Shown here: piece after piece, positions 13,932-29,040 of the stretch
Layout: each line of letters starts with the position of its first letter
Position numbering within the stretch: the stretch's first letter is position 1
Assembly (NCBI GenBank): GCA_050692915.1
Contig: JBOGVU010000001.1
Coordinates: 12,490-76,489, forward strand
DNA: 64,000 bases
Direction of reading: 5' to 3'
Source: Actinomycetota bacterium
GTDB taxonomy: Bacteria > Actinomycetota > UBA4738 > CALAEC01
Notes under the pieces: model-generated
Seen by the model: the letters and a program-made list of their open reading frames with translations, nothing else
What the model was told of the DNA's origin: nothing
The model's database searches: none
Translations under genes and position numbers: made by a program

Positions 13932-14636
13932 TCAGGCCACCGCCCGCGGGGCAGGGAGGGTCAGGGTGAACCGACAGTCTCCGCGGGCTGACTTCTCCAG
14001 GACCAGGTCGCCGCCGTGGGCCCGGGCGATCGAACGGGAGAGCGCCAGGCCGAGCCCGGTGCCCCCGGGGTGGCCCCGAACGAAGGGTTCGAAGATTCGG
14101 GTTCGGAGGCCCTCCGGGATCCCTCCGCACCGGTCGGCCACCGAGAGGGACGCTCCGGCAGCCGTGCGCCGGAGCTCAACCGAGATCGCCGTCCGAGGCG
14201 GCGCGTACCGAGCGGCGTTCGACAGGAGGTTGATGAGGATCTCCCTGATCGCCACCGGGTCGACCCTGACGGGGGTCACGGTCCGGAGGGTGAGGCGGAC
14301 CGGGCGGCCGTCGAGAAGGGCGGACATGTCCTCCACCGTCTCCCCCACCAGACGGCTCAGGTCCGTGGTCCGGACGCGGAGGTGAGCCTCCCCGGTCAAC
14401 CGCCCGATGAGCTCGTCCAAGTACTCCGAGCTCCGCAGGATGCTCTCCATGCACCGCTCGATCTTCTCGGGCGGGATCTCGTGGGCCGAGCTCCTGACGG
14501 CCTCGGCCAGCAGCCGGACCGCCTTCACGGGCGACAGGAGCTCGTGAGCCAGGGCCTCGGGGGTGGCCGGGCCGTCCCCGGGCAGGACGACCACGAGAGG
14601 GGTCTCTCGAACGCCCGCCGGCTCCCTCCGCTCCAT
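13932..14636 (-). CDS. sensorless histidine kinase core (HisKA + HATPase_c only)
   Basis: H-box HELLSPVKAV about 30 aa from the N-terminus, N-box LINLLSNAARYAPP, G1 DRCGGIP, G2 GGTGLGLALS. No TM, sensor or linker domain. Confidence 0.75.
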   Translation of the reverse strand: MERREPAGVRETPLVVVLPGDGPATPEALAHELLSPVKAVRLLAEAVRSSAHEIPPEKIERCMESILRSSEYLDELIGRLTGEAHLRVRTTDLSRLVGETVEDMSALLDGRPVRLTLRTVTPVRVDPVAIREILINLLSNAARYAPPRTAISVELRRTAAGASLSVADRCGGIPEGLRTRIFEPFVRGHPGGTGLGLALSRSIARAHGGDLVLEKSARGDCRFTLTLPAPRAVA

Positions 14637-14676: not shown

Positions 14677-16203
14677 TCAGCCCCCAGAAGTTTGCCGCGT
14701 CTCCTCGTCCAGGGCGGCCACCGTGCGCTCGAACAGCTCCTGAGCCTGGTCGTGAGACTCGCCGATCGCGGTGAGCCCGATCCGTCCGTGCTGGGGGAGC
14801 GCGCTGATCATGTGGAACACCACCCCAACCTGGCGCGACTGGTCGAAGTGGAGCCCGTGGCGGACCACGATGTCGAACAGGTCGTCCGGGGAGAGTCCCC
14901 GGTACGCGTCCGACTCGACGTGGTCGGAGGCCACGAAGCACTTGGGACGACCGCTCGGCGCGGTGAACACGCCGGCATCGGGATCGTAGGTGCCGTCGGT
15001 CAGGAACTGGAGCGTGAGGAACGGGTGGGTGGTGCCGCCCTTCCGGAGGTTCAGCTCGATCGCGTAGGGGTCCCAGGCCCCGTCCCTTCGTACCACCACG
15101 AAGTCGAGGGCGAACCGGCCGATCACGCCATCCCTGGCCAGCCGGGCTCCGATCTTCGCCGCCTCCCGCGTGATCGCGCCGGCGTACCCGGTGTCCGCGG
15201 GGAACCGGGCCCCGAGGTAGGACTGGCCGCTCGGGCCGCCCAGGAGCTGGTCGTGCGTGGACAGCAGCTCGACCTCCCCGAGAGGAGTGACCCGGAGCTG
15301 GACGCTCGGGCTCCGGAACTCCTGGCCGGCGATCCGCTCCTCGACGACCCCGCCCCGCTCCCGGAGCTTGGCCACGTACTCGTCGAACGTCACCCCTTCC
15401 ATCTCGAAACGCATCGACCGGACCCGCTCCTCCAGGCCGGCGCGCTCGGAGGGATCGCCGGGCGGGGGCAGCCCCTCCAGGTCGATGAGGGCGTTACCCT
15501 CGCCCGACACGCCCTCGTTGAGCTTGGCCAGGGCCTGCTGGACCTCGGGCTTGCCCTCGCGTAGCTTCGAAAGGGCGCCGACGAGGTCCTCTGGGCCGAA
15601 CAGGTCCTCGAACCCGAGGGGATAGGGGATCCCCTCCTCGGCGAAGAGCTGCCGGCAGCCGCTCTTCGTGCCGAGGGGGAAGTGCTTCGGGTCGGCGCCG
15701 TACATGGGGATGCCCAGGGCAACGGCAAGGTCGCGCTCGATCTCGGTGGTGTTGTAGGGGACGAGATGCGCCCGGTCGGGGTCCGGGACCAGGTCGCGGA
15801 TCCGCTGGAGGAGCCGGGGCCGGGCCAGGAGCTTCTCGGATAGTGGTCCCGCCGATGCATCGAGGGGAGACGGCAGGAACAGCCGGGCCCGGGCATGGCT
15901 GGGGATGACGCCGGGCAGCAGGTCCAGGTAGTAGTCGACGATGGCGGGATGGATCATCTGGGAGGTCACGTACACGAGCCGGGCTCTGGGCTGCCGGAGC
16001 AGGAGCAGGAGGAACAGGAACCGCTCCTCGTAGGCCTGCATGAGTGACCCGGTGAGGCCCTCGCTGTCCAGGGTGATGGACGGGACGACCACGATCGTCT
16101 GCTCATCCTGATTCATCGCCCGGATCGATTCCCACAGCGGGACGAGCTTCCGCTGGAGCTCCTCGAACCGGGCCTGGCTGTTTCCGGCCGGCGTGACGGT
16201 CAC
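14677..16203 (-). CDS. ATP-grasp family protein with N-terminal pre-ATP-grasp domain (PGM1-like peptide/amide ligase family)
   Basis: C-terminal ATP-grasp signature YAIELNLRKGGTTHP. N-terminal IVVVPSITLDSEGLTG...RLVYVTS pre-ATP-grasp-like fold. Precise family is inferred. Confidence 0.6.
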   Translation of the reverse strand: MTVTPAGNSQARFEELQRKLVPLWESIRAMNQDEQTIVVVPSITLDSEGLTGSLMQAYEERFLFLLLLLRQPRARLVYVTSQMIHPAIVDYYLDLLPGVIPSHARARLFLPSPLDASAGPLSEKLLARPRLLQRIRDLVPDPDRAHLVPYNTTEIERDLAVALGIPMYGADPKHFPLGTKSGCRQLFAEEGIPYPLGFEDLFGPEDLVGALSKLREGKPEVQQALAKLNEGVSGEGNALIDLEGLPPPGDPSERAGLEERVRSMRFEMEGVTFDEYVAKLRERGGVVEERIAGQEFRSPSVQLRVTPLGEVELLSTHDQLLGGPSGQSYLGARFPADTGYAGAITREAAKIGARLARDGVIGRFALDFVVVRRDGAWDPYAIELNLRKGGTTHPFLTLQFLTDGTYDPDAGVFTAPSGRPKCFVASDHVESDAYRGLSPDDLFDIVVRHGLHFDQSRQVGVVFHMISALPQHGRIGLTAIGESHDQAQELFERTVAALDEETRQTSGG

Positions 16204-16408
16204 TACAGCCTCCCCGTGTCGGACATCACTCTCGAATGGTGCGTTTCATCACGGCGGACGGCGTGAGCACCCATCTACACTCCCTCGAGCGTGTGAAGTC
16301 AAGGGAGGGGAGCGATGCTGAGGGGCGGGACTGGCGTCCCCAACGTAGGAAAGTTAGTCATTTTGGACCATTCCCCGTCGGGCATCCGGCGGCTAGGCTG
16401 ACCCGTCG

Positions 16409-18097
16409 ATGTCCAATCCCTTGGCCAACCGTAAACGCCTGCCCGTACTACTCGCGTTGGTGACGGCGGGCCTGGTCCTGGCCGCCCTCCTGTTCATCAC
16501 CGCGGGCCCCGCTACGGCCAAGGAGTTCGCCACGCTCCACCTCCTGGAGGGCACCGTCGAGGTCCAGCGAGGCGACGGTCAGTTCGGTCCGGGGGGGGAG
16601 GGCCAGACCCTCCAGGCCGGGGACACCGTTCGAACAGGGCCCGATGGCCGGGCGGAGATCGAGTACTTCGACGGCAGCCTCACCAGGCTGGACCTGGACA
16701 CCTCGTTCACCCTCAGGGAGCTGGCCAGCCTGCAGGACGAGCCCGACAGCAAGGTGATCGAGGCCGAGCAGGCCGAGGGCCGGACGTTCGAGCGCGTCAC
16801 CGCGATCACCGACTCGCAGAGCCGGTTCGACGTGGAGACGCCAACCGCCACCGCTTCGGTCCGCGGGACCTCCTACCTGCTGACCGTGCACCCGGGGGGT
16901 GGGACCGAGCTGTGGGTCCTCCCCGACGACGAGCCGGGCGCGAGCACGGTCATCCTGATCCTCGAGGACGGGACCGAGATCGTCGTCTCCGAGGGGCAAG
17001 GGGTGCTGGTGAACCCCGATGGGTCCATCGATGGGCCGTTCGTGCTCACCGACGAGCAGCTCGAGGACGGCTTCGTGCTCTTCAACCAGTGCCAGGACGA
17101 CCCCGGGCATCCGGACTGCCAGGTCGAGGTGGAGCCGAAGGTCGTGGAGAACGACGGTCAGGACCCCGACGATCCATTCGAGCCGGACGTCACCATCCCG
17201 CCCACGCAGCCCGAGGTCGTGGAGCCCGAGCCGACCGGCGAGGGCACCGGTGGTGGCGGCGGCGGGGGTGGCGATGGCGGCGACCAGGACGAGCCGTCCG
17301 ACCGCCGTTCGGTGGTGATCACGCTGTCGTGGTCCTCGGGTCCGTCGAACCTCGACCTCCATGTGCTCACGCCCGACGTGGAGGAGGACGAGGGCGGCGA
17401 GGTGTGGTCGGGCAATCCCTGCCTGGCCCGGGAGGACGGCTCGTGCTGGGCGTTCGCGTCCGGCGACGCCGTCGGCTTCGGCTCGGAGACCGTGACGCTC
17501 CGGCCGATCGGCGATCCCGAGGACGGGGACTGGCTGAAGGGCGGCTACCGGGTGTGGGTGGAGAACACGAGCTGCCAGGACGGCCCGTTCGCCGACTCGG
17601 ATGCCGCGGTGACGATCTCGCGGGCGGGTGGTGAGTCGGTCTCGCTGCCGGTCTCCGGCGCCACCGGCGACAGGACGCTGGAGACCTGGAACGTGGGCTC
17701 GGTCTTCATGAGCCAGGACGGTTCGATGGCGGTCGCCGGCACCCAGTCGACGGTCGGCGACCCGTGCGGCCCGCCCGTCGGAGGGCCGGTGCGGTTCAAG
17801 GGGGTCGGGGAGAGGGGATACCAGGTGGTCCAGCCGGAGCCACCGCGCGACAAGGGCGGCGACGATGGCGGCACGGGAACGGAGGGCGGCGAGGACGGGG
17901 AGATGCCGCCGGCCCCCGAGCCCGAACCGCAGCCGGCCCCCGAGCCGGAGCCCCCGCCCGAACCCGAACCGGAACCGGATCCTGAACAGGAGCCTGAACC
18001 GGAGCCTGAACCGGAGCCGACCCCGCCCGATGAGCCTCCGGCCGACGAGGTCACGCCCTCCGGCCTGTCGACCGACGACGCACGGGACGGCCAGTGA
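16409..18097 (+). CDS. secreted FecR-domain protein with beta-sandwich middle domain and acidic Pro/Glu-repeat C-terminal tail
   Basis: N-terminal TM/signal (LPVLLALVTAGLVLAALLFI). FecR-like region (GTVEVQRGDG...LQAGDTVRTGPDGRAEIEYFDGSLTRLDLDTSFTL). Gly run GGGGGGGDGGD. Tail PEPEPQPAPEPEPPPEPEPEPDPEQEPEPEPEPEP. Confidence 0.75.
   Translation: MSNPLANRKRLPVLLALVTAGLVLAALLFITAGPATAKEFATLHLLEGTVEVQRGDGQFGPGGEGQTLQAGDTVRTGPDGRAEIEYFDGSLTRLDLDTSFTLRELASLQDEPDSKVIEAEQAEGRTFERVTAITDSQSRFDVETPTATASVRGTSYLLTVHPGGGTELWVLPDDEPGASTVILILEDGTEIVVSEGQGVLVNPDGSIDGPFVLTDEQLEDGFVLFNQCQDDPGHPDCQVEVEPKVVENDGQDPDDPFEPDVTIPPTQPEVVEPEPTGEGTGGGGGGGGDGGDQDEPSDRRSVVITLSWSSGPSNLDLHVLTPDVEEDEGGEVWSGNPCLAREDGSCWAFASGDAVGFGSETVTLRPIGDPEDGDWLKGGYRVWVENTSCQDGPFADSDAAVTISRAGGESVSLPVSGATGDRTLETWNVGSVFMSQDGSMAVAGTQSTVGDPCGPPVGGPVRFKGVGERGYQVVQPEPPRDKGGDDGGTGTEGGEDGEMPPAPEPEPQPAPEPEPPPEPEPEPDPEQEPEPEPEPEPTPPDEPPADEVTPSGLSTDDARDGQ
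17890..18040 (+). repeat. imperfect tandem DNA repeat encoding the (P-E)n acidic tail
   Basis: Reiterated gagcc(t/g)gaacc(g) units (cctgaaccggagcctgaaccggagccg). Confidence 0.6.
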
Positions 18098-19737
18098 TGC
18101 GCCGCGCCACGATCGTGGGCATCGTCCTGACGGGGCTCCTCATGACGGCGGGGTCGCCGGCCCGGGCCGACCACTCGATCGGGGCCGCCGGTGCCGGTTC
18201 GATCTCGACGGCGATCGCTCGCGACGCGTCCGTGGTCACCGGGGCGGGCTTCGAGCCGGGGACCGCCCTGTTGACCAATGCCAACGCCGCACCGAGCGTG
18301 CCGCTCACCGCCTTCCCCACCCATGGGGCCACCTACGGCATCCTGACCACCGGCGACGCCCGCTTCGCCGATCATCCGGGGACCTTCCAAAGCAGCGGCG
18401 GGGGAGGAAGCTTCCGGGGAGCCAACGACGTCACGATCCTCCGGGTCGACCTGTCCGTCCCGGCGGGCCAGAACTGCCTGTCCGTCGACTTCCAGTTCTT
18501 CTCCGAGGAGTTCCCCGTCTACGTGGGGACGCAGTTCAACGATGCGTTCATCGCCGAGCTGGATGAGTCCACCTGGACGATCGTCGGCTCGTCCATCACT
18601 GCCCCGGACAACTTCGCGTTCGATCCGGACGGGAACGTCATAAGCATCAACAGCACCGGCGTGGCCAGCATGAATGCTGACAACGGTGCCGGCACAGCGT
18701 ACGACACGGGGGATCCATCGACGACGACCGGCGACGGCGGCGCGACGACCCTGCTCCGAGCCTCAACGCCGATCACACCAGGACCCCACGCCGTGTACTT
18801 CTCGATCTTCGACCAAGGCGACAGCTCCCTGGACTCGGCGGTCTTCCTCGACAACCTCTCGCTCGGGACGACGGGCGAAGGCGGCTGTCAGCCCGGGGCC
18901 ACCCTCCCTCCACCGATCGTGTCGAAGACGGCCGACAGCGCCAGCACGGCGCCGGGGGGTTCGAACGGCTACACGATCACGGTCACGAACCCCAACGACG
19001 TGCCGGTCAGCCTCGACACGATCACCGACACCCTGCCCCAGGGATTCCTCTATACGGCCGGGTCGACCACCGGAGCCGTGACCACCAACCCGGTCGTCGA
19101 CGGGCAGGCCCTCACCTGGCAGGGGGTGGAGGGTCCGCTGGTTCAGGTCCCGTCGAACGGGAGCATCTCGCTCCACTTCGGGGTCACCGTCTCGAGCGTC
19201 CCCGGTGAGTATCTCAACGACGCGGTGGCGACCGCGTCGGGCTTCGCCATTCAGTCCACCGGTCCCACCGCGCCGATCACCGTGACCGAGCCCGAGCCGC
19301 CGCCTCCTCCGCCGCCCGTGGACGAGCCCTGCGACCCGGTCACCCTCGAGGGGACGGGTGCCGGCGAGACCCTCCTGGGGACGGCCGGCGCCGATCGCAT
19401 CCGGGGGCTGGCCGGGCGGGACCGGGTCGACGCGCTTGGCGGCGACGACGAGCTGTGTGGCGGCCTCGGGGGCGACTACCTGTATGGCCGCGACGGGGTC
19501 GACTCCCTCCGTGGCGAGGAGGGCAACGACCGGCTATACGGCGGCCGTGGCGGGGACGTGCTAGAGGGCGGGCCCGGGCACGACGCCATCATCGGCGGCC
19601 GAGGGCCGGACACCATCCTGGCCGCCGACGGGACCAAGGACTGCATCGTCACCGGCAAGGGCAACGACTCGGTGACCGCCGACCCGTTCGACGTGGTCGA
19701 CCCGAAGAAGGGCTGCCCGCCCGGCTTCTGGCTGTAG
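18094..19737 (+). CDS. secreted Ca2+-binding beta-roll protein: choice-of-anchor-like N-domain + DUF11-like repeat + RTX nonapeptide repeats
   Basis: Signal peptide MMRRATIVGIVLTGLLMTAGSPARA. LSVDFQFFSEEFPVYVGTQFNDAFIAEL region. DUF11-like YTITVTNPNDVPVSLDTITDTLPQGF. Poly-Pro linker. Seven or more GGxGxDxL-type repeats (GGDDELCGGLGGDYLYGRDGVDSLRGEEGNDRLYGGRGGDVLEGGPGHDAIIGGRGPD). ATGA overlap with the upstream gene. Confidence 0.75.
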   Translation: MMRRATIVGIVLTGLLMTAGSPARADHSIGAAGAGSISTAIARDASVVTGAGFEPGTALLTNANAAPSVPLTAFPTHGATYGILTTGDARFADHPGTFQSSGGGGSFRGANDVTILRVDLSVPAGQNCLSVDFQFFSEEFPVYVGTQFNDAFIAELDESTWTIVGSSITAPDNFAFDPDGNVISINSTGVASMNADNGAGTAYDTGDPSTTTGDGGATTLLRASTPITPGPHAVYFSIFDQGDSSLDSAVFLDNLSLGTTGEGGCQPGATLPPPIVSKTADSASTAPGGSNGYTITVTNPNDVPVSLDTITDTLPQGFLYTAGSTTGAVTTNPVVDGQALTWQGVEGPLVQVPSNGSISLHFGVTVSSVPGEYLNDAVATASGFAIQSTGPTAPITVTEPEPPPPPPPVDEPCDPVTLEGTGAGETLLGTAGADRIRGLAGRDRVDALGGDDELCGGLGGDYLYGRDGVDSLRGEEGNDRLYGGRGGDVLEGGPGHDAIIGGRGPDTILAADGTKDCIVTGKGNDSVTADPFDVVDPKKGCPPGFWL

Positions 19738-19747
19738 GCTGGCGCGC

Positions 19748-21691
19748 GTGAAGCGCACGGCCGGGTTCCGCGTCGCCACATCGGCACTGATCGCGGCGGC
19801 CATCACCCTCCTGTCGTGGGCCGGGCTGGCCGCGGGCGCGTTCCACGGGACCCAGCTGCGGTTGGTCGACGCGCTGTTCCCGGCGATCGGCCCCGACGAC
19901 CGGATCGCCGTGGTGGCCGTCGACGAGACGAGCCTCGAGGCGATCGGCCAGGCCTGGCCGTGGCCCCGCTCCATCCATGCCGACCTGGTTCGCGCCCTCC
20001 GATCCGGGGGCGCCGACCTGATCGGCTACGACGTGACCTTCGCGGAGCCGACCGATCCCGAGGAGGACGCCGCGCTGGCGGGCGCGATCGCCGAGGGGAA
20101 CGACGTCGTCCTGGCGGCCAACGCCATCTTCCCACCGGAACGACTCGAGGATCCTCCTAGGGCCGCAGCTCTCGATCGGCCGATCCCCGCGCTGGGTGAC
20201 GCCGCGACGGCGGTCGCCCACGCGAACGTGATCCCGGACCCCGACGGGGTGGTGCGGGCCCTCCCGCCGGTCATCGAGAGCCCCGACCTCGACTACGTGC
20301 CCGCCCTTTCGCTGGCCCTGTACGCGCTGGAGGAGGACGTCGAAGGCCAGCTGACGTTCCGTCCCGACGGATGGCAGATCGGGGACCGGCTCATCCCCAC
20401 GGGACGGGCCCACCTCATGGACGTGAACTTCAGCGCTCGAGCCGAATACCCGACCTATCAGGCCGTCCAGGTCCTCGAGGGCGAGGTCCCGGCGGACGCG
20501 TTCGAGGGGAAGATCGTGCTGGTCGGGGCGACCGCGCTCGGCCTCGGGGACACGCGGCTCACCCCGCTCAACAAGACCACCGGCGATCCCGGCGTCTTCG
20601 TCCACGCGAGCGCGCTCAACACCATGCTCACCCGGGCGTTCCTGTTCCCCGACGAACGGGCCAGTGTCCTGGTGGCCGTGTTCGTGGTGGCCCTCCTGTC
20701 GGCGATGGCCGTGGCCTTCCTGCGGGTGTGGGCCTCGCCGGTGGTCGTCCTGGGGATCGGCACCGCGTACTTCCTGCTCGCGTTCTGGCGGTTCGACCAA
20801 GGGCACGTCATGAACCTGGTGTACCCGGCGCTGGGCATGGTGGTCGCGTTCATCGGTGCGCTGGGCGTCCGCTACTTCACCGAGGAGCGGGAGCGGCGAC
20901 GGGTCACCAGGGTGTTCGGCCGGTACGTGGCCCAGGACGTCGTCGACGAGGTCCTGGCCGCGCCCGAGGCCGCCCTGGCCACCCTGGAGGGGCAGTCACG
21001 GACGATCTCGGTACTGTTCGCCGATCTCCGCGGGTTCACGTCCGCGTCCGACGGGGCGGAGCCTGGGCAGGTGGTGGAAGCGCTGAACGTGTACCTCGAT
21101 GCCATGGTCAGGGCGGTCAACGAGGAGCGGGGGACCATCGACAAGTTCATGGGCGACTGCGTGATGGCGTTCTGGGGCGCCCCCCGGCCCAGCGAGCACC
21201 ACGCCGAGCATGCCGCCCGGGCCGGCATCAAGATGCTCGACTACATCGACGAGGCCGTGGCGGCGGGTCGGACGTCGGGCCTGGAGGTGGCCGGCTGCGG
21301 CGTGGGGATCGCCACCGGCGAGGCCGTGGTGGGGAACATCGGCTCGCACGACCGGCTCGACTACACGGTGGTCGGGGACACCGTGAACACGTCCAGCCGG
21401 CTATGCGGCGTGGCCGGGCCCGGCCAGATCGTGGTCACCGACGCATGCGCCGCCGAGATCCGGGACCGGTTCCGCATCGGGGACCTCCCGTCGCTTGAGG
21501 TGAAGGGGAAGGCGAAGCCCCTCCGGGTGTTCCAGATCCTCCGCGAGGGGCAGGAGGCGCCGGAGGTCATGGAGGGCGCCGTCGTCGAGTACAGCGAGGA
21601 GAAGGGTCACTTCGAGCAGACCGCCCCGGCCAAGGCGGCCGGGTACGCCCCGATCGAGCCCCGCCAAGGCGACGAGGAGCCGACCTCCTAG
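19748..21691 (+). CDS. CHASE2-sensor class III adenylate cyclase
   Basis: GTG start. N-terminal TM, large extracytoplasmic CHASE2-like region, three TM helices, then cyclase homology domain with metal-binding FADLRGFT and IDKFMGDCVMAFWG. The Lys (TIDKF) and Asp (GDTVNTSSRL) specificity residues indicate adenylate rather than guanylate cyclase. Confidence 0.85.
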   Translation: MKRTAGFRVATSALIAAAITLLSWAGLAAGAFHGTQLRLVDALFPAIGPDDRIAVVAVDETSLEAIGQAWPWPRSIHADLVRALRSGGADLIGYDVTFAEPTDPEEDAALAGAIAEGNDVVLAANAIFPPERLEDPPRAAALDRPIPALGDAATAVAHANVIPDPDGVVRALPPVIESPDLDYVPALSLALYALEEDVEGQLTFRPDGWQIGDRLIPTGRAHLMDVNFSARAEYPTYQAVQVLEGEVPADAFEGKIVLVGATALGLGDTRLTPLNKTTGDPGVFVHASALNTMLTRAFLFPDERASVLVAVFVVALLSAMAVAFLRVWASPVVVLGIGTAYFLLAFWRFDQGHVMNLVYPALGMVVAFIGALGVRYFTEERERRRVTRVFGRYVAQDVVDEVLAAPEAALATLEGQSRTISVLFADLRGFTSASDGAEPGQVVEALNVYLDAMVRAVNEERGTIDKFMGDCVMAFWGAPRPSEHHAEHAARAGIKMLDYIDEAVAAGRTSGLEVAGCGVGIATGEAVVGNIGSHDRLDYTVVGDTVNTSSRLCGVAGPGQIVVTDACAAEIRDRFRIGDLPSLEVKGKAKPLRVFQILREGQEAPEVMEGAVVEYSEEKGHFEQTAPAKAAGYAPIEPRQGDEEPTS

Positions 21692-22821
21692 GCCGAGGCC
21701 AGGGCCCGGTCGAGATCCTCGACGAGGTCGTCGGGGTGCTCGATCCCCACGGAAAGCCGGATCAGCGTGGGTGGCACCTCCAGGGGTGAGCCGGCCACGC
21801 TGGCGTGGGTCATCGGCCCGGGGACCTCGATCAAGGACTCGACACCACCGAGCGACTCGCCCAGGAAGAACAGCTCGGTCGCCTCCGCTACCCGGATGGC
21901 CTCCTCGGGCGAGCCCATCTCGAACGACACCATCCCCCCGAAGTCCCGCATCTGCCGAGCCGCCACCTCGTGCTGCGGGTGGTCCGGGAGGCCGGGGTAG
22001 TGCACCCTGTTCACCCGCTGGTGGGACCCCAGGAACTCAGCGACCCGGCGGGCTCCCCGGCAGTGGGCCTCCATCCGGACGGCCAGGGTCTTGACGCCTC
22101 GAAGGGCCAGGTAGCAGTCCATCGGGCCGGGCACCGCGCCCACCGCGTTCTGGAGGAACCGGAGCCGCTCCGCGGTCTCGGCGTCGTTCAGCACCAGCGC
22201 CCCCCCGATCAGGTCGGAGTGCCCACCCAGGTACTTCGTCACCGAGTGGACCACGGCGTCGGCGCCGAGCTCCAGGGGCCGCTGGAGGTACGGGCTGGCG
22301 AACGTGTTGTCGACCACGCACCAGGCGTCCGCCTGGTGGGCGATCGCCGAGACCGCCTCGATGTCCACGATCTTGAGGAATGGGTTCGTGGGCGTCTCCA
22401 CCCAGATCACCCGGCTCTGGTCGCGGACCGCCGCCTGGACGGCCTCGAGGTCGGTCAGGTCCACGGTGTCGAAGGCCACCCCCCAGTCGGATAGCACCCG
22501 GGCCAGCAGGCGGTAGGTGCCGCCGTACACGTCGTCGCCGAGGACGAGGCGGTCGCCCGGCCGCAGCCGGGCCAGGAGCAGCGTGGTCTCCGCGGCCAGG
22601 CCGGAGGCGAACGACAGGCCGTGGGCCCCGCCCTCCAGCGACGCCACCACCACCTCGAGGGCCTCGCGGGTGGGGTTGCCGGCGCGGGCGTAGTCGTACC
22701 GCTTCGGCTTGCCCACGGCCTCCTGTGCGTACGTGGACGTCTGGTAGATCGGCACGTTCACCGAGCCGAACTCGGGCTCGGGGTCCTGGCCGACGTGGAT
22801 CGCCTTCGTCTCGAACCTCAT
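21688..22821 (-). CDS. metB: cystathionine gamma-synthase/gamma-lyase (Cys/Met metabolism PLP enzyme)
   Basis: 377-aa tail from MRFETKAIHVGQ. PLP-Lys region HSVTKYLGGHSD. ATGA overlap with the upstream CBS gene. Confidence 0.85.
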   Translation of the reverse strand: MRFETKAIHVGQDPEPEFGSVNVPIYQTSTYAQEAVGKPKRYDYARAGNPTREALEVVVASLEGGAHGLSFASGLAAETTLLLARLRPGDRLVLGDDVYGGTYRLLARVLSDWGVAFDTVDLTDLEAVQAAVRDQSRVIWVETPTNPFLKIVDIEAVSAIAHQADAWCVVDNTFASPYLQRPLELGADAVVHSVTKYLGGHSDLIGGALVLNDAETAERLRFLQNAVGAVPGPMDCYLALRGVKTLAVRMEAHCRGARRVAEFLGSHQRVNRVHYPGLPDHPQHEVAARQMRDFGGMVSFEMGSPEEAIRVAEATELFFLGESLGGVESLIEVPGPMTHASVAGSPLEVPPTLIRLSVGIEHPDDLVEDLDRALASA

Positions 22822-27640: not shown

Positions 27641-27954
27641 CAGGACTAGTCCTTTCTGACTACCTTCAAATGGCCCGCTCGGGCCATTCCCCCACCCGCA
27701 TTCGCCAGGGCATCATAGGCGCGAAGACGAGCCGGGTTCTTGCCCGGCGAAGCGGCACACGAGAAGGGCGCTCGGGTGCTGCATGTGCCAGGAGGGGGAT
27801 TCGCGGGCAGTCCCCCCTCTGGCTTTTCCGGGGTCTTATTCGACCCAGCGCCTCCGCGCCGAGCTCGGTCTGAGCCCGTAGAGCTGTTGACCACCTTGTC
27901 CTCGAGGTCTAGAGTCGCGTTCGGCTGTCCGCCACGGCGGAATGGGGCCCGTGG

Positions 27955-29040
27955 ATGAGGGTTGAAACGCTCGTGGGTCGCCCGGCCCACATCGTCGCCG
28001 CACTGGTGGCAGTGCTCGTTTGGACGCTTCCCACAGCGGCCGTGGCAGCGCCCCCGCCTAACGACGCGTTCGCCGCCCGCACCACGATCGCCGCCCTTCC
28101 CTACACGGACACCCAATCCACCCTCGAGGCCACCGAGGAGCCGGGCGAGCCGTCGACCGATTGCGGCCCCATGGGGAAGACGATCTGGTACCAGTTCACC
28201 CCCGGATCGGACATGGTCCTGTCGGCCTCGATGTCGGGGAGCGACTTCGACACCCTGCTGGCCGTGTGGACCGGGCCGTCGTTGGGGTCCCTCACTGAGG
28301 TCGGCTGCGTGGACTTCGGCTCGGTCGTCTTCGCTGCCCAGGCGGGGACGCCATATCTGTTTCAGGCCGGTGGCTGGGTCGACTCTGCGGGCTCCGCCAA
28401 CGTTCGGCTCCGGGAGACCGAGGCCGGGGTGATCTCGGGGACCGTGACCGAAGACGGCACGGGGACGCCGCTGGCCGACATCTGCGTGGACGCCGTGGAC
28501 GCTGACTTCCTTACGCGCACCTTCCACCGCACCGATGCGGCGGGCGTGTTTCGAGCGGCGGTACGCCCCGGGGTCTACGTGATCGTGTTCTACGACTGGT
28601 GCGACGATCTGAACGATCACCGAACGGAGGTGTTCGACGACAAGCCCTTCTTCAGCCTGGCGGACGAGGTGACCGTGAGCGGTTCGACGACCGTTTCGGG
28701 GGTGGACGCCGGTCTGGCGCGGGCCTGCTCCTTCTACGGCGATTACACACAGCCCCAGTACGTGGGGACCGATGGGCCGGACGTGTTCGTCGGCACCGAC
28801 GAGCCGGAGATCTTCTGCGGCCTCGGCGGCAAGGACGTGATCCGTGGCGGGGGAGCCCGGGATCGGATCCTCGGGGGGCCCGGCCCGGACCGGCTGTCCG
28901 GGGGTGCCGGCAGCGACTACATCTTCGGTGAGAAGGGAGCCGACCGCCTCGCCGGCGGTGCGGACAGGGACTACTGCAGCGGGGGCAAGGGCAAGGATCG
29001 AGCGAACCGCTCCTGCGAGCGGACCCGCAGCATCCCGTAG
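27955..29040 (+). CDS. secreted protein with C-terminal RTX (hemolysin-type Ca2+-binding) repeats
   Basis: Signal peptide (LVAVLVWTLPTAAVAAPP), beta-sandwich region, repeats GGKDVIRGGGARDRILGGPGPDRLSGGAGSDYIFGEKGADRLAGGADRDY. Confidence 0.7.
   Translation: MRVETLVGRPAHIVAALVAVLVWTLPTAAVAAPPPNDAFAARTTIAALPYTDTQSTLEATEEPGEPSTDCGPMGKTIWYQFTPGSDMVLSASMSGSDFDTLLAVWTGPSLGSLTEVGCVDFGSVVFAAQAGTPYLFQAGGWVDSAGSANVRLRETEAGVISGTVTEDGTGTPLADICVDAVDADFLTRTFHRTDAAGVFRAAVRPGVYVIVFYDWCDDLNDHRTEVFDDKPFFSLADEVTVSGSTTVSGVDAGLARACSFYGDYTQPQYVGTDGPDVFVGTDEPEIFCGLGGKDVIRGGGARDRILGGPGPDRLSGGAGSDYIFGEKGADRLAGGADRDYCSGGKGKDRANRSCERTRSIP

Follow-up and report, generated by a model that had tools for sequence, protein, structure and literature searches.

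Genes for FecR-domain proteins are known to lie beside CHASE2 receptor genes, but the association has no mechanistic explanation (PMC5192318, PMC9239204), as the first-pass annotation of the present locus had also stated. In Campylobacterota, a cAMP cluster of unknown function encodes a CHASE2 adenylate cyclase, a FecR-domain protein, a TPR protein and a cAMP phosphodiesterase (PMC9239204), and the Burkholderia 'BiofilmReg' operon encodes a response regulator, a LysM+FecR protein and a CHASE2 histidine kinase (PMC5192318). The CHASE2 cyclases of S. meliloti receive a protein signal via the accessory envelope protein NsrA, with no direct binding of a small ligand (PMC13001267). Since the pairing of FecR with CHASE2 is common but unexplained, an operon that joins it to a Ca2+-binding, adhesin-like protein is a natural test case for signal reception. 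A locus of this kind is described here from a window of 64,000 nucleotides, the whole stretch of DNA analysed, from an uncultured actinobacterium.

Layout of the locus and its upstream region

Three closely coupled genes, g1, g2 and g3, were called on the same strand, with a third-position GC of 0.90-0.93, as in real genes of this 70% GC window. The genes and upstream features are as follows:

16204-16408, plus strand: divergent intergenic/promoter region between a minus-strand PGM1-like ATP-grasp gene and g1
16355-16371, plus strand: palindromic AT-rich element TAGTCATTTTGGACCAT with the core TAGTC-N6-GACYA, retained 5' of g1 orthologues
16394-16399, plus strand: -10-like TAnnnT hexamer TAGGCT, conserved in position
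16409-18097, plus strand: g1, FecR-like protein of 562 aa (FecR HMM match; NCBI name 'FecR domain-containing protein')
18094-19737, plus strand: g2, secreted head-CLIPPER-RTX protein of 547 aa from GTG 18094 or 546 aa from ATG 18097 (HMM matches)
19748-21691, plus strand: g3, CHASE2 receptor-type class III adenylate cyclase of 647 aa (HMM matches, alignments to solved cyclase domains)

The first-pass annotation had proposed three coupled ORFs behind a 205-bp upstream region with a 10-nt gap between g2 and g3; translation places all three ORFs exactly as proposed, the region measures 205 bp, and the gap is seen at 19738-19747. The ATGA overlap that it had read at 18094-18097, however, is a GTGA/ATG junction (CAGTGATGCGC). 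The stop codon TGA of g1 occupies 18095-18097, and g2 starts either at GTG 18094 with a 4-nt GTGA overlap or at ATG 18097 with a 1-nt overlap, the latter being the start of the 546-aa NCBI model. In relatives, too, the FecR gene overlaps the middle gene by 1 or 4 nt. The gene order and tight coupling of g1-g2-g3 point to a single operon.

The palindromic element is kept 5' of the g1 orthologues at five loci (L001, L003, L012, L013 and L089). With one mismatch permitted, it has three matches in the window against 0.43 expected, and the copy at 16355-16371 is a candidate operator for some regulator. A further copy of the element precedes, by ~290 bp, the gene of a second secreted RTX protein in the window (27955-29040). 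A sigma-70 consensus scan of the region upstream of g1, which does not cover high-GC actinobacterial promoters, returned no match. The hexamer reads TAGGCT, TACGCT or TACACT at the same position in orthologous regions and, because it ends 9 nt before the g1 ATG, suggests that the g1 mRNA is leaderless or has a very short leader, from a start that is inferred rather than mapped.

Domain composition of the three proteins

HMM searches upheld all of the earlier domain assignments (FecR, choice-of-anchor, DUF11, RTX, CHASE2 and cyclase), with every match in g1-g3 above its curated cut-off. The domains and segments are as follows:

16433-16519, plus strand: only hydrophobic segment of g1, aa 9-37 (hydropathy), a signal peptide or signal anchor, then GPATA/KE
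16526-17053, plus strand: FecR-like domain, g1 aa 40-215, with the fold of the PupR C-terminal cell-surface-signalling domain
16865-16870, plus strand: G153-T154 dipeptide of g1, aligned with the E. coli FecR self-cleavage site G181-T182
17306-17773, plus strand: TerD-like beta-sandwich, g1 aa 300-455
17780-18094, plus strand: acidic disordered Pro/Glu-rich tail, g1 aa 458-562 (sequence composition, structure model)
18169-18897, plus strand: choice-of-anchor-L head, g2 aa 26-268, a beta-sandwich (NF038133, E = 2.7e-16)
18898-19293, plus strand: DUF11 (CLIPPER) CnaA-like stalk domain, g2 aa 269-400
19321-19734, plus strand: RTX beta-roll, g2 aa 410-547, with four conserved Cys and the conserved C-terminus GCPPGFWL
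19805-20689, plus strand: CHASE2 ectodomain, g3 aa 20-314 (PF05226; hydropathy)
20651-20872, plus strand: three TM segments after CHASE2, g3 aa ~302-375 (hydropathy)
20996-21520, plus strand: cyclase catalytic domain, g3 aa 417-591 (PF00211; alignments to Cya2, 2w01/6fht, and CyaB, 3r5g)

In g3, CHASE2 (PF05226) scores 173 bits (E = 1.1e-50) and Guanylate_cyc (PF00211) 83.5 bits (E = 1.9e-23). Hydropathy places TM1 at aa 9-32, before CHASE2, and the overall topology from HMM and hydropathy is TM-CHASE2-3TM-cyclase. The closest solved cyclase domains are P. aeruginosa CyaB (3r5g) and Synechocystis Cya2 (2w01/6fht), with E = 7e-30 to 2e-36; a sequence search of solved chains with g3 gave no match over the CHASE2 region. 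The metal ligands D426 and D470, the specificity pair K466 (TIDKFMGD) and T540 (DYTVVG), and the transition-state residues N547 and R551 have aligned counterparts in CyaB and in the Glu-to-Lys variant of Cya2. Of the two residues first taken to set specificity, the Lys of TIDKFMGD stands, but its partner by alignment is T540, which aligns with the Thr of CyaB, and not the Asp of GDTVN (D544). The K466/T540 pair matches CyaB and bears out the claim of cAMP synthesis. At the level of sequence, g3 is thereby shown to be a class IIIb adenylate cyclase that has a full set of catalytic residues, is embedded in the membrane and takes its input from a CHASE2 domain facing outwards. CyaB has the same Lys/Thr substrate pair and a native MASE2 input domain, and 6fht carries a bacteriophytochrome input in an engineered fusion, whereas g3 carries CHASE2.

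The FecR domain of g1 (PF04773) scores 38.8 bits, and its ATG at 16409 is backed by an N-terminus conserved among homologues. Its earlier description as membrane-anchored is only partly sustained: a single N-terminal hydrophobic stretch is present, with a helix at aa 10-31 in the structure model, but a conserved signal-peptidase-like G-P-A-T-A/K site follows, in which G33, P34 and A35 are almost invariant among homologues, and anchoring is uncertain. Within the TerD-like domain, G344 is the only nearly invariant residue. Acidic Pro/Glu tails of comparable kind (84-119 aa) are carried by the FecR protein of every locus with a middle gene; locus L014 has the tail, yet no g2 gene. The extracellular parts of g1-g3 are all strongly acidic, with a pI of ~4.

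The G153-T154 dipeptide is invariant across 40 sequences and lies opposite G181-T182 in a profile alignment to E. coli FecR, which self-cleaves at that site (PMC8144685); g1 may be cleaved likewise. Peptidase_S8 genes also flank the g3 orthologue at five loci (L001, L002, L004, L012 and L013). Both observations would suit a proteolytic relay like that of FecR-type cell-surface signalling, in which the fragments of self-cleaved g1 stay together until a signal leads to the outer one being removed or degraded, possibly through S8 peptidases, and so relieves or imposes control of CHASE2, with g2 protecting or exposing g1. Such a relay is quite improbable, as the window has no S8 peptidase gene beside g3, the GT dipeptide is a general FecR-domain consensus, some FecR-like proteins do not cleave, and g1 has neither a cytoplasmic anti-sigma domain nor a site-2 protease context.

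The g2 protein opens with the signal peptide MRRATIVGIVLTGLLMTAGSPARA, followed by D, and its structure model has a pLDDT of 87. Its head scores 59.7 bits against choice_anch_L (NF038133), DUF11 scores 26.6 bits and HemolysinCabind 62 bits, and g2 homologues carry a precomputed PF26766 annotation. Foldseek with the head found no close solved relative, just low-TM adhesin-like matches. The RTX region contains six canonical GGxGxD nonapeptides and about four to five degenerate ones, modelled by AlphaFold as 12 strands at 9-residue spacing.

Distribution of the FecR-CHASE2 pair and of the middle gene

A FecR-like gene with a CHASE2 cyclase recurs across an uncultured Actinomycetota/Acidimicrobiia clade, and nearly every actinomycetotal CHASE2-cyclase orthologue with enough flank has a FecR-like neighbour. 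The pairing is also present in Firmicutes, Proteobacteria, Gemmatimonadota and Spirochaetes. Among 19 distant loci, ten have a FecR-like gene within ~7 kb of the CHASE2 cyclase (Firmicutes, Alphaproteobacteria, Burkholderiaceae, Gemmatimonadota, Muiribacteriota and Spirochaetales). Locus L011 has a CHASE2 cyclase and no FecR gene, and L090 has a FecR-Ig protein without any cyclase nearby. Beyond the FecR domain, the C-terminal part of the protein is adhesin-like and hypervariable in relatives, with arrays of Big_13 (x7), cadherin/Big_9 (x13), CarboxypepD_reg (x6), CLIPPER (x5) or PKD domains, and TPR in diderms, including FecR+TPR fusions at Geminicoccus and Spirochaetales loci. At L042, a FecR+CLIPPERx5 fusion brings together in a single protein the domain types that g1 and g2 carry separately. 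The FecR proteins of L016 and L019 seem to be anchored by their C-termini, in which case the FecR domain would be distant from the membrane. The FecR-like domain appears to be the constant partner, and the varying part an adhesin-like extension that is built into the FecR protein or encoded by a gene of its own.

The middle gene occurs mainly in one subclade of the cyclase tree, as judged from neighbour-joining trees without support values. The g2 protein belongs to a distinct family, whose members differ in the head, have 0-3 CLIPPER domains and close with an RTX beta-roll that keeps GCxxGFW(L) at its end. Three unrelated head types sit over the constant CLIPPER-RTX-GCxxGFW(L) end, and the RTX is the best-conserved part of g2, with identities of 82/73/64% against 60/53/52% for the head (L009, L003 and L001, respectively). 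All family members with readable context (8/8) sit within a FecR...CHASE2-cyclase cluster, always between the FecR and cyclase genes with 1- or 4-nt overlaps, and the trio clusters occupy two chromosomal settings, ATP-grasp...Cys/Met-PLP and prfB...YfhO. Neither of two CoA-L+RTX proteins without the GCxxGFW(L) C-terminus lies near a CHASE2 gene. In the close relatives L089, L017 and L010, FecR is followed directly by the CHASE2 cyclase, and so, as far as gene content indicates, g2 cannot be essential to the cyclase system or its control.

Because most g2-bearing loci form one subclade with common synteny, much of the apparent conservation of the trio may be vertical inheritance. The tail-coding DNA of the FecR gene adjoins g2, and joint loss of tail and g2 is confounded since a single deletion would remove both. 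The conservation anticipated in the first-pass annotation holds in part: g2 is kept at 49-83% identity and in two genomic contexts, but the beta-roll protein is not general. Its view that an RTX partner in a CHASE2 operon is undescribed agrees with a literature search, which yielded no paper joining the two. The core FecR-CHASE2 pair is already known and, on these comparisons, the RTX middle gene is a lineage-specific accessory.

The shared synteny and ancestry of most trio loci would be expected of three independent envelope genes adjacent by chance in one lineage. This absence of any functional link is disfavoured and highly improbable, given that FecR-CHASE2 adjacency recurs across phyla with different output domains (PMC5192318, PMC9239204), that the trio is also found in a second chromosomal context, and that the gene overlaps are conserved. 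It is unlikely that g1 and g3 signal while g2 is merely a co-transcribed secreted surface or matrix protein, an output or co-regulated product with no input to the cyclase. Close relatives do dispense with g2; choice-of-anchor L, CLIPPER and RTX are domains that typify fibrillar adhesins; comparable CoA-L+RTX proteins occur on their own in other places; and the position of the second RTX gene 3' of a palindromic-element copy hints at co-regulation. The GCxxGFW-type subfamily, however, was found only in FecR...CHASE2-cyclase clusters (8/8), in two genomic contexts and always as the overlapping middle gene. What stays constant in this subfamily is the RTX end and not the head, an unusual pattern for a free adhesin.

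Exchange of heads also bears on the earlier proposal of a ligand- or Ca2+-sensing complex that gates the cyclase, taken here as a Ca2+ switch whereby the g2 RTX, and perhaps the TerD-like domain of g1, would fold above a Ca2+ threshold and gate the cyclase, such that the operon reports external Ca2+. An RTX roll of ~10-12 turns, a TerD fold whose family has a Ca2+-binding member (2kxt), and the acidity of the extracellular parts are consistent with this switch. It is nonetheless improbable: RTX repeats as a rule serve structure or folding, swappable heads over a constant RTX favour recognition of a ligand or surface over ion sensing, and the cyclase is kept in relatives without g2. In addition, when SGDAVGFGSE of g1 is set against what we take to be the TerD-type acidic Ca2+ motif, the motif is apparently not conserved.

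Proposed signalling route and comparison with described systems

The reading preferred here, held tentatively at a probability of about 0.45, is that a FecR-like constant co-receptor of CHASE2 and exchangeable adhesin-like antennae, here split off as g2, control cAMP synthesis; all contacts among g1, g2 and g3 that it contains are ones that we infer. The operon would act as an extracytoplasmic signalling unit that sets cAMP levels. The constant partner of the CHASE2 sensor would be g1, whose predicted FecR-like fold is one used by FecR/PupR regulators for relay from a surface receptor, and its FecR-like domain probably binds the CHASE2 ectodomain and alters cyclase dimer geometry. S. meliloti NsrA is a precedent for such an accessory-protein route to CHASE2. 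The FecR-like domain may form the base of an adhesin-like array outside the cell whose make-up varies. In most relatives this array would be part of the FecR chain itself (Ig-like, cadherin, CLIPPER or CarboxypepD_reg repeats, with TPR in diderms), and in this sublineage it would partly consist of the separate, Sec-secreted g2 with its exchangeable head, CLIPPER stalk and constant Ca2+-folded RTX. The RTX most likely docks either to g1, through its TerD-like domain or its acidic tail, or to g1 and g3 as a complex. A ligand, surface or load on the g2 head would then act through g1 and CHASE2 to change cAMP synthesis. Ca2+ would be a structural need of g2 and not necessarily the signal; RTX repeats serve more often for folding or anchoring than for sensing.

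The Campylobacterota cluster likewise sets a CHASE2 class III cyclase beside a FecR-domain protein and a third extracytoplasmic protein-interaction component, but its hosts are diderms, its third component is TPR rather than head-CLIPPER-RTX, and it includes a phosphodiesterase, whereas no phosphodiesterase gene adjoins the trio or was found among the scanned window genes. BiofilmReg also has the gene for a FecR-domain extracytoplasmic protein immediately upstream of that for a CHASE2 transmembrane receptor; its output, however, is a histidine kinase and response regulator rather than a cyclase, its FecR protein carries LysM where g1 has a TerD-like domain and acidic tail, and it has no RTX partner. 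Unlike the FecR/PupR/FoxR sigma regulators, g1 has no anti-sigma domain, since just ~8 residues precede its hydrophobic segment. The trio also has no ECF sigma factor or TonB-dependent transducer nearby, and its host belongs to the presumably monoderm Actinomycetota.

The S. meliloti cyclases CyaD1, CyaD2 and CyaK resemble the proposed system in being CHASE2 cyclases whose activation requires both a macromolecular (protein) signal and an accessory protein of the envelope, NsrA (PMC13001267, PMC5498481). NsrA, however, is a beta-barrel outer-membrane protein and not FecR-like, and the FecR-domain protein SMc02177 is a downstream Clr target rather than a cyclase neighbour. RTX adhesins of the LapA/MpIBP type consist of an N-terminal retention module, Ig-like repeats, a ligand-binding region and a C-terminal RTX. 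The trio differs in dividing this layout between two polypeptides, both of which have their own N-terminal Sec signal, and in having neither type I secretion genes nor LapG/LapD-type control; at L044, a FecR-like+RTX protein does lie in a type I secretion locus beside a CHASE2 cyclase. The adhesin layout itself is repeated by g1 and g2 together, with the RTX roll at the end of g2, and by the long FecR-Ig proteins of relatives.

Gene layout and upstream sequence

The first-pass annotation had read three co-directional genes as one module, and all three open reading frames were found on the plus strand with the boundaries it had assigned. CLIPPER and RTX below denote the DUF11 domain and the HemolysinCabind beta-roll, respectively.

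Genes of the trio in the window (position, strand, product)
16409-18097, plus strand: g1, FecR-like protein, 562 aa
18094-19737, plus strand: g2, the middle gene, head-CLIPPER-RTX protein, 547 aa
19748-21691, plus strand: g3, CHASE2 class III cyclase, 647 aa

The third-position GC content of these frames is 0.90-0.93, which fits the 70% GC content of the window, and they therefore have the GC profile of real genes. The trio is operon-like. The 205-bp region 5' of g1, which is divergent intergenic sequence, and the 10-nt spacing between g2 and g3 were borne out, and the ATGA overlap reported between g1 and g2 was a small misreading: the junction sequence is CAGTGATGCGC, where the g1 stop codon TGA overlaps a GTG start at 18094 (GTGA) or an ATG at 18097, the g2 start of the public annotation. 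In relatives, too, the FecR gene and the middle gene overlap by 1 or 4 nt. A sigma-70 promoter scan of positions 16000-22000 found no site, with a consensus that does not cover high-GC actinobacterial promoters, and an intrinsic terminator scan of the same region returned a single terminator-like site, within g3 on the opposite strand, which is chance level.

A -10-like TAGGCT (16394-16409 region) ends 9 nt 5' of the g1 ATG, at a position kept in orthologues, and suggests a putatively leaderless or near-leaderless g1 transcript; the public g1 model starts 17 codons downstream, yet homologues conserve the longer N-terminus. Orthologues of g1 also share an AT-rich palindrome on their 5' side, TAGTC-N6-GACYA.

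Copies of the palindrome (L-numbers denote relatives' loci from other genomes or metagenomes)
Window: 16355-16371
L001: 6230-6247
L003: 4237-4253
L012: 6224-6241
L013: 5511-5528
L089: 6946-6962

A second window palindrome (27646-27663, CTAGTCCTTTCTGACTAC) lies between a minus-strand amidohydrolase gene and the gene of another secreted RTX protein (27955-29040, plus strand; 361 aa), whose N-terminus is hydrophobic; a CarboxypepD_reg-like domain and RTX repeats at the C-terminus follow, without a GCxxGFWL ending. The two window copies may be a shared operator of some regulator. Two GTG-N8-CAC cores (16215-16230 and 16238-16253), like the centre of CRP sites, also lie 5' of g1; two are present in L003 and one in L002, and they are absent from L001, L012, L013 and L089. 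They give a weak hint of possible CRP-type/cAMP autoregulation of the operon.

Divergent genes upstream of the trio
13932-14636, minus strand: short histidine kinase (HisKA and HATPase_c), 234 aa
14677-16203, minus strand: PGM1-like ATP-grasp enzyme

This kinase/ATP-grasp synteny is common to L001, L003, L012, L013, L089 and L093, often together with a TetR gene, of which there is none in the window.

Domain architecture of the three proteins

The FecR, HemolysinCabind, DUF11, choice-of-anchor L, CHASE2 and Guanylate_cyc assignments made at first reading all pass curated HMM thresholds. The g3 protein matches CHASE2 (PF05226) across aa 20-314 with E = 1.1e-50 and Guanylate_cyc (PF00211) with E = 1.9e-23, at 83.5 bits against a cut-off of 21.9 bits. 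Hydrophobic stretches occupy aa 9-32 and ~302-375, and the cyclase domain comes after them, which gives the order of an N-terminal TM segment, the CHASE2 ectodomain, three TM segments and a cytoplasmic cyclase domain, which is the architecture of a CHASE2 receptor, with PF05226 between an N-terminal TM and a C-terminal TM bundle and with a cytoplasmic output. The product is predicted to be an intact adenylate cyclase with its CHASE2 domain facing outward. A PDB sequence search with g3 gave Synechocystis Cya2 and P. aeruginosa CyaB as the nearest solved relatives, the best matches being cyclase domains, and no solved chain matched over the CHASE2 region.

The metal ligands D426 (FADLRGF) and D470 (FMGD) and the transition-state residues N547 and R551 (VNTSSRL) align with those of CyaB and Cya2. 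Substrate in class III cyclases is specified by a Lys position and an Asp/Thr position. K466 of g3 aligns with the Lys that replaces the wild-type Glu in a Cya2 variant engineered to use ATP (6fht), and the CyaB residue aligned with T540 is the Thr in DYTIIG. In these alignments the Lys proposed earlier as a specificity residue holds, and the Asp of GDTVN proposed with it does not, its partner role falling to T540. Since the metal Asp pair, N547, R551 and K466/T540 are all in place, g3 is predicted from its residues to be a class IIIb adenylate cyclase. Guanylate cyclase identity was ruled out, as the specificity position is Lys and not Glu.

The g2 protein begins with a Sec-type signal peptide, carries a CLIPPER, CnaA-like domain and tandem GGxGxDxUx nonapeptides of the type that forms a Ca2+ beta-roll, and terminates in a family-specific GCxxGFWL. 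Candidates for an isopeptide triad (Lys, Asp/Glu, Asn) occur in VSKTAD, ITDTLP and YLNDAVA; a PDB sequence search with the CLIPPER region gave no significant alignment to 9ifr. The long tandem stalk and cell anchor of fibrillar adhesins were not found, g2 having one CLIPPER domain (0-3 in relatives) and neither LPXTG nor a C-terminal TM. Foldseek comparison of the g2 model with the PDB returned only low-TM multi-sandwich adhesin matches, with no structural relative of the choice-of-anchor-L head, and the titles and abstracts of the 'choice-of-anchor' literature apparently include none on type L. A type I-secreted RTX toxin or adhesin was rejected as the identity of g2, given its Sec signal and the lack of type I secretion genes beside the trio and among the window genes scanned.

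The AlphaFold model of g1, for which 40 homologues were used, includes in order an N-terminal hydrophobic helix, a disordered Pro/Gly linker and a disordered acidic Pro/Glu tail. The protein has an extracytoplasmic FecR domain (PF04773) with a PupR CCSSD-like fold and a domain with the TerD beta-sandwich fold. A PDB sequence search with the FecR region gave only spurious designed beta-trefoil matches. No Pfam or NCBIfam TerD hit was obtained at E <= 0.1, and identity as a TerD protein by sequence was rejected, the agreement being one of fold. The TerD Ca2+ motif, which is of the acidic GDN...DGDDE type, is apparently not conserved in g1. Only ~8 residues precede the hydrophobic segment, and no N-terminal cytoplasmic anti-sigma domain (~80 aa) is present; nor was an ECF sigma factor or TonB-dependent transducer found next to the trio or at orthologous loci, the neighbours of the trio being an ATP-grasp enzyme, a histidine-kinase fragment, Cys/Met PLP enzymes and similar genes. 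The identity of a FecR-type anti-sigma factor was rejected on this basis.

A conserved GPATA|KE site lies just after the N-terminal hydrophobic helix of g1, which may be a cleaved signal peptide instead of an anchor. Long FecR-Ig proteins encoded 5' of CHASE2 cyclases in L016 (6792-10001) and L019 (3-2084) have a C-terminal hydrophobic stretch followed by RRRKR or RRLRRR, which looks like a membrane anchor or sorting signal; if so, the N-terminal hydrophobic segment of the FecR family would be a cleaved signal peptide. The predicted extracellular segments of g1, g2 and g3 (16520-21000) have a computed pI of ~4.0-4.3 and a net charge of -8 to -28, an acidity that may reflect a saline/Ca2+-rich habitat or Ca2+ dependence.

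G153-T154 of g1 is invariant in the family, and profile alignment places it at the self-cleavage site of E. coli FecR, G181-T182 (PMC8144685). In several trio-bearing relatives, large Peptidase_S8 genes lie directly 3' of the CHASE2 cyclase gene.

Peptidase_S8 genes 3' of the cyclase gene
L001: 12127-15354
L012: 12109-15336
L013: 12101-15334
L002: 10033-11991
L004: 6548-8497

A FecR-style proteolytic relay through the GT site and these S8 peptidases would draw on such flanking genes; however, no S8 peptidase gene flanks g3 in the window, the convergent neighbour of g3 there encoding a Cys/Met PLP enzyme, and a relay of this kind is distinctly improbable.

The core pair and the accessory gene in related genomes

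Bacterial kinases, cyclases and c-di-GMP enzymes have CHASE2 as one of their most common extracytoplasmic input domains. Species-representative genomes were scanned with g3, and the domains of the window were then mapped onto the loci. Orthologues of g3 come only from uncultured Actinomycetota/Acidimicrobiia MAGs and more distant CHASE2 cyclases from several other phyla, all source organisms being uncultured. Nearly all actinomycetotal orthologues with sufficient flanking sequence have a FecR-like gene immediately 5' of the cyclase, in direct adjacency in L015, L023, L028 and L089, for example, and with g2 intervening in the window. A FecR-like gene is also found within ~7 kb in 10 of 19 distant CHASE2-cyclase loci (Faecalibacterium/Oscillospiraceae, Geminicoccus, Burkholderiaceae, Gemmatimonadota, Muiribacteriota and Spirochaetales). 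A FecR-fold partner is thereby conserved with the CHASE2 cyclase across phyla, and the adjacency of the three genes is extremely improbable as a coincidence. With its same-strand adjacency, recurring among taxa, the locus belongs to a recognised FecR-CHASE2 neighbourhood module that the literature notes without a mechanism. The first-pass annotation had said as much, in agreement with this recurrence and with reports in which the FecR-like neighbour of CHASE2 is frequent and goes unexplained (PMC5192318, PMC9239204).

The middle gene is an accessory to this pair. On a neighbour-joining tree it is concentrated in one cyclase subclade (window, L009, L003, L093/94, L002, L004, L013, L001 and L012) and recurs in the distant pair L091/L092; it is missing from L010 and L011 within that subclade and from L089 and L017, close relatives of the window. 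Synteny with the window is preserved in L089, where identity to the window proteins is 71% for g1 and 81-90% for g3; for L017, g3 identity across the CHASE2 region is 78%. At either locus the FecR gene is followed directly by the cyclase gene. Conservation of the whole trio therefore stands for the subclade and L091/L092, and close relatives keep the FecR and cyclase genes without g2, which argues that the cyclase system does not require it. An 84-119-aa acidic, K/R-poor Pro/Glu tail is present on the FecR protein at every middle-gene locus, and L089 and L017 have neither the tail nor g2. This joint absence is suggestive only as a sign of interaction, since the tail-coding DNA is contiguous with g2 and one deletion removes both.

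Middle-gene proteins share a constant C-terminal part, in which 0-3 CLIPPER domains precede an RTX roll that contains four conserved Cys and finishes in GCxxGFW(L); the RTX is the best-conserved g2 segment among orthologues. Their heads are of three unrelated types: choice-of-anchor L, a second type (L093/L094/L091/L092) and a third (L013); Pfam searches of the alternative heads in L093 and L013 gave no matches. Among the best 120 clusters of g2 homologues, 36 have the GCxxGFW end, and all eight members with readable context lie inside a FecR...CHASE2-cyclase cluster, including a second chromosomal context, prfB...YfhO (L091/L092). Two proteins with a choice-of-anchor L head and RTX but without the GCxxGFW end stand alone. 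In the contexts that were readable, the RTX-ended accessory family was found only with FecR...CHASE2; that g2 is a passenger adhesin, merely co-transcribed, is possible if unlikely, and its dispensability in L089 and L017 would fit such a passenger. No paper was found joining CHASE2 to an RTX or CLIPPER partner, in line with the earlier remark that a beta-roll partner is undescribed.

The prfB/YfhO context of L091/L092 holds a FecR-PKD-Big_13 protein, a CLIPPER-RTX protein and the CHASE2 cyclase, and in L090 (7001-8800) the place between prfB and a YfhO-like gene is taken by a FecR+PKD protein, and no cyclase is encoded close by, so FecR-Ig proteins can exist without a CHASE2 partner.

Where relatives have no middle gene, very long FecR proteins with arrays of adhesin-stalk type are frequent.

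FecR proteins with fused arrays
L014: 1973 aa, Big_13 x7 and a TerD-like domain
L016, L002, L004, L099: cadherin/Big_9
L024: CarboxypepD_reg x6
L042: PKD and cadherin x13
L042: CLIPPER x5, 1214 aa

In the 1214-aa protein of L042, a single chain carries the domain types found separately in g1 and g2. In diderms the FecR extension is TPR instead (L045, L048 and L060), in agreement with a Campylobacterota FecR/TPR/CHASE2-cyclase cluster (PMC9239204).

In L044 (8440-17931), an alphaproteobacterial MAG, a CHASE2 cyclase gene lies within a type I secretion locus, in the order TolC-like OEP, cyclase, HlyD and ABC transporter (opposite strand) and an 831-aa protein; this substrate combines a FecR-like N-domain with ten RTX stretches. 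Metagenome contigs scanned for relatives of it yielded one (L095, 40% identity); neither a CHASE2 nor a cyclase gene occurs within 10 kb of this relative, and the link of type I secretion to CHASE2 cyclases is anecdotal for that reason. Other distant CHASE2-cyclase loci hold cAMP-pathway or envelope genes.

cAMP-pathway and envelope genes at distant loci
L047, 12106-15296: class II cAMP phosphodiesterase and GAF-MshE-like T2SSE ATPase
L051, 3905-4699: class II cAMP phosphodiesterase
L049, 2414-4810: GAF-MshE-like T2SSE ATPase
L039, 2267-2983: CRP-like regulator
L040, 7476-8909: GAF-HD protein
L046, 5222-8230: two-partner-secretion exoprotein

A possible sensing scheme and known systems

The loci can be arranged as a natural series. 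Some have only the FecR/cyclase pair, in others an Ig-like, cadherin or CLIPPER array is fused to the FecR protein, and in others again the pair is joined by a separate head-CLIPPER-RTX protein bearing one of three heads. The series points to the FecR-like domain as a constant co-receptor and to adhesin-like modules as variable antennae. The FecR-like domain would touch CHASE2 and pass on the state of the antenna, part of which, in this sublineage, would be the separate g2 protein docked by its constant RTX end; ligand or surface engagement of the g2 head would then alter cAMP synthesis.

Generalised, and with a probability of roughly 0.2, CHASE2 would read not small ligands but a FecR-like co-receptor, whose state it would follow and which would serve as the foot of an adhesin-like antenna; here the antenna would be a detachable, Ca2+-folded plug-in (exchangeable head, CLIPPER stalk and RTX-GCxxGFWL dock) that binds the FecR protein at its acidic tail or TerD-like domain, so that contact with a surface, polymer or cell is turned into cAMP. 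Ca2+ would be needed for the folding of g2. The first-pass annotation had cast it as a switch, with the FecR and beta-roll proteins forming a complex that senses ligand or Ca2+ and gates the cyclase; its observation of the module is confirmed and its interpretation partly supported, and the Ca2+ switch itself is rather improbable.

If the antenna reading is true, the locus encodes a modular, adhesin-coupled contact sensor in monoderm bacteria, surface adhesion is linked to cAMP, and the logic of FecR-type cell-surface signalling extends from diderm sigma-factor control to monoderm second-messenger control; if it is wrong, this is an ordinary receptor cyclase with co-transcribed surface proteins. 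The locus overturns nothing and turns the CHASE2/FecR question into concrete experiments. What is new is the accessory head-CLIPPER-RTX-GCxxGFWL family, the general pattern in which CHASE2-linked FecR proteins are the feet of variable adhesin-like arrays, and the natural series with and without the accessory gene.

Unlike FecR-type anti-sigma systems, g1 has no anti-sigma domain and neither an ECF sigma factor nor a TonB-dependent transducer nearby, and g2 differs from classical type I-secreted RTX proteins in its Sec signal and in the lack of type I secretion genes around it. In S. meliloti, CHASE2 cyclases answer a plant protein via the accessory envelope protein NsrA (PMC13001267), a system that fits the accessory-protein relay logic proposed for the trio.
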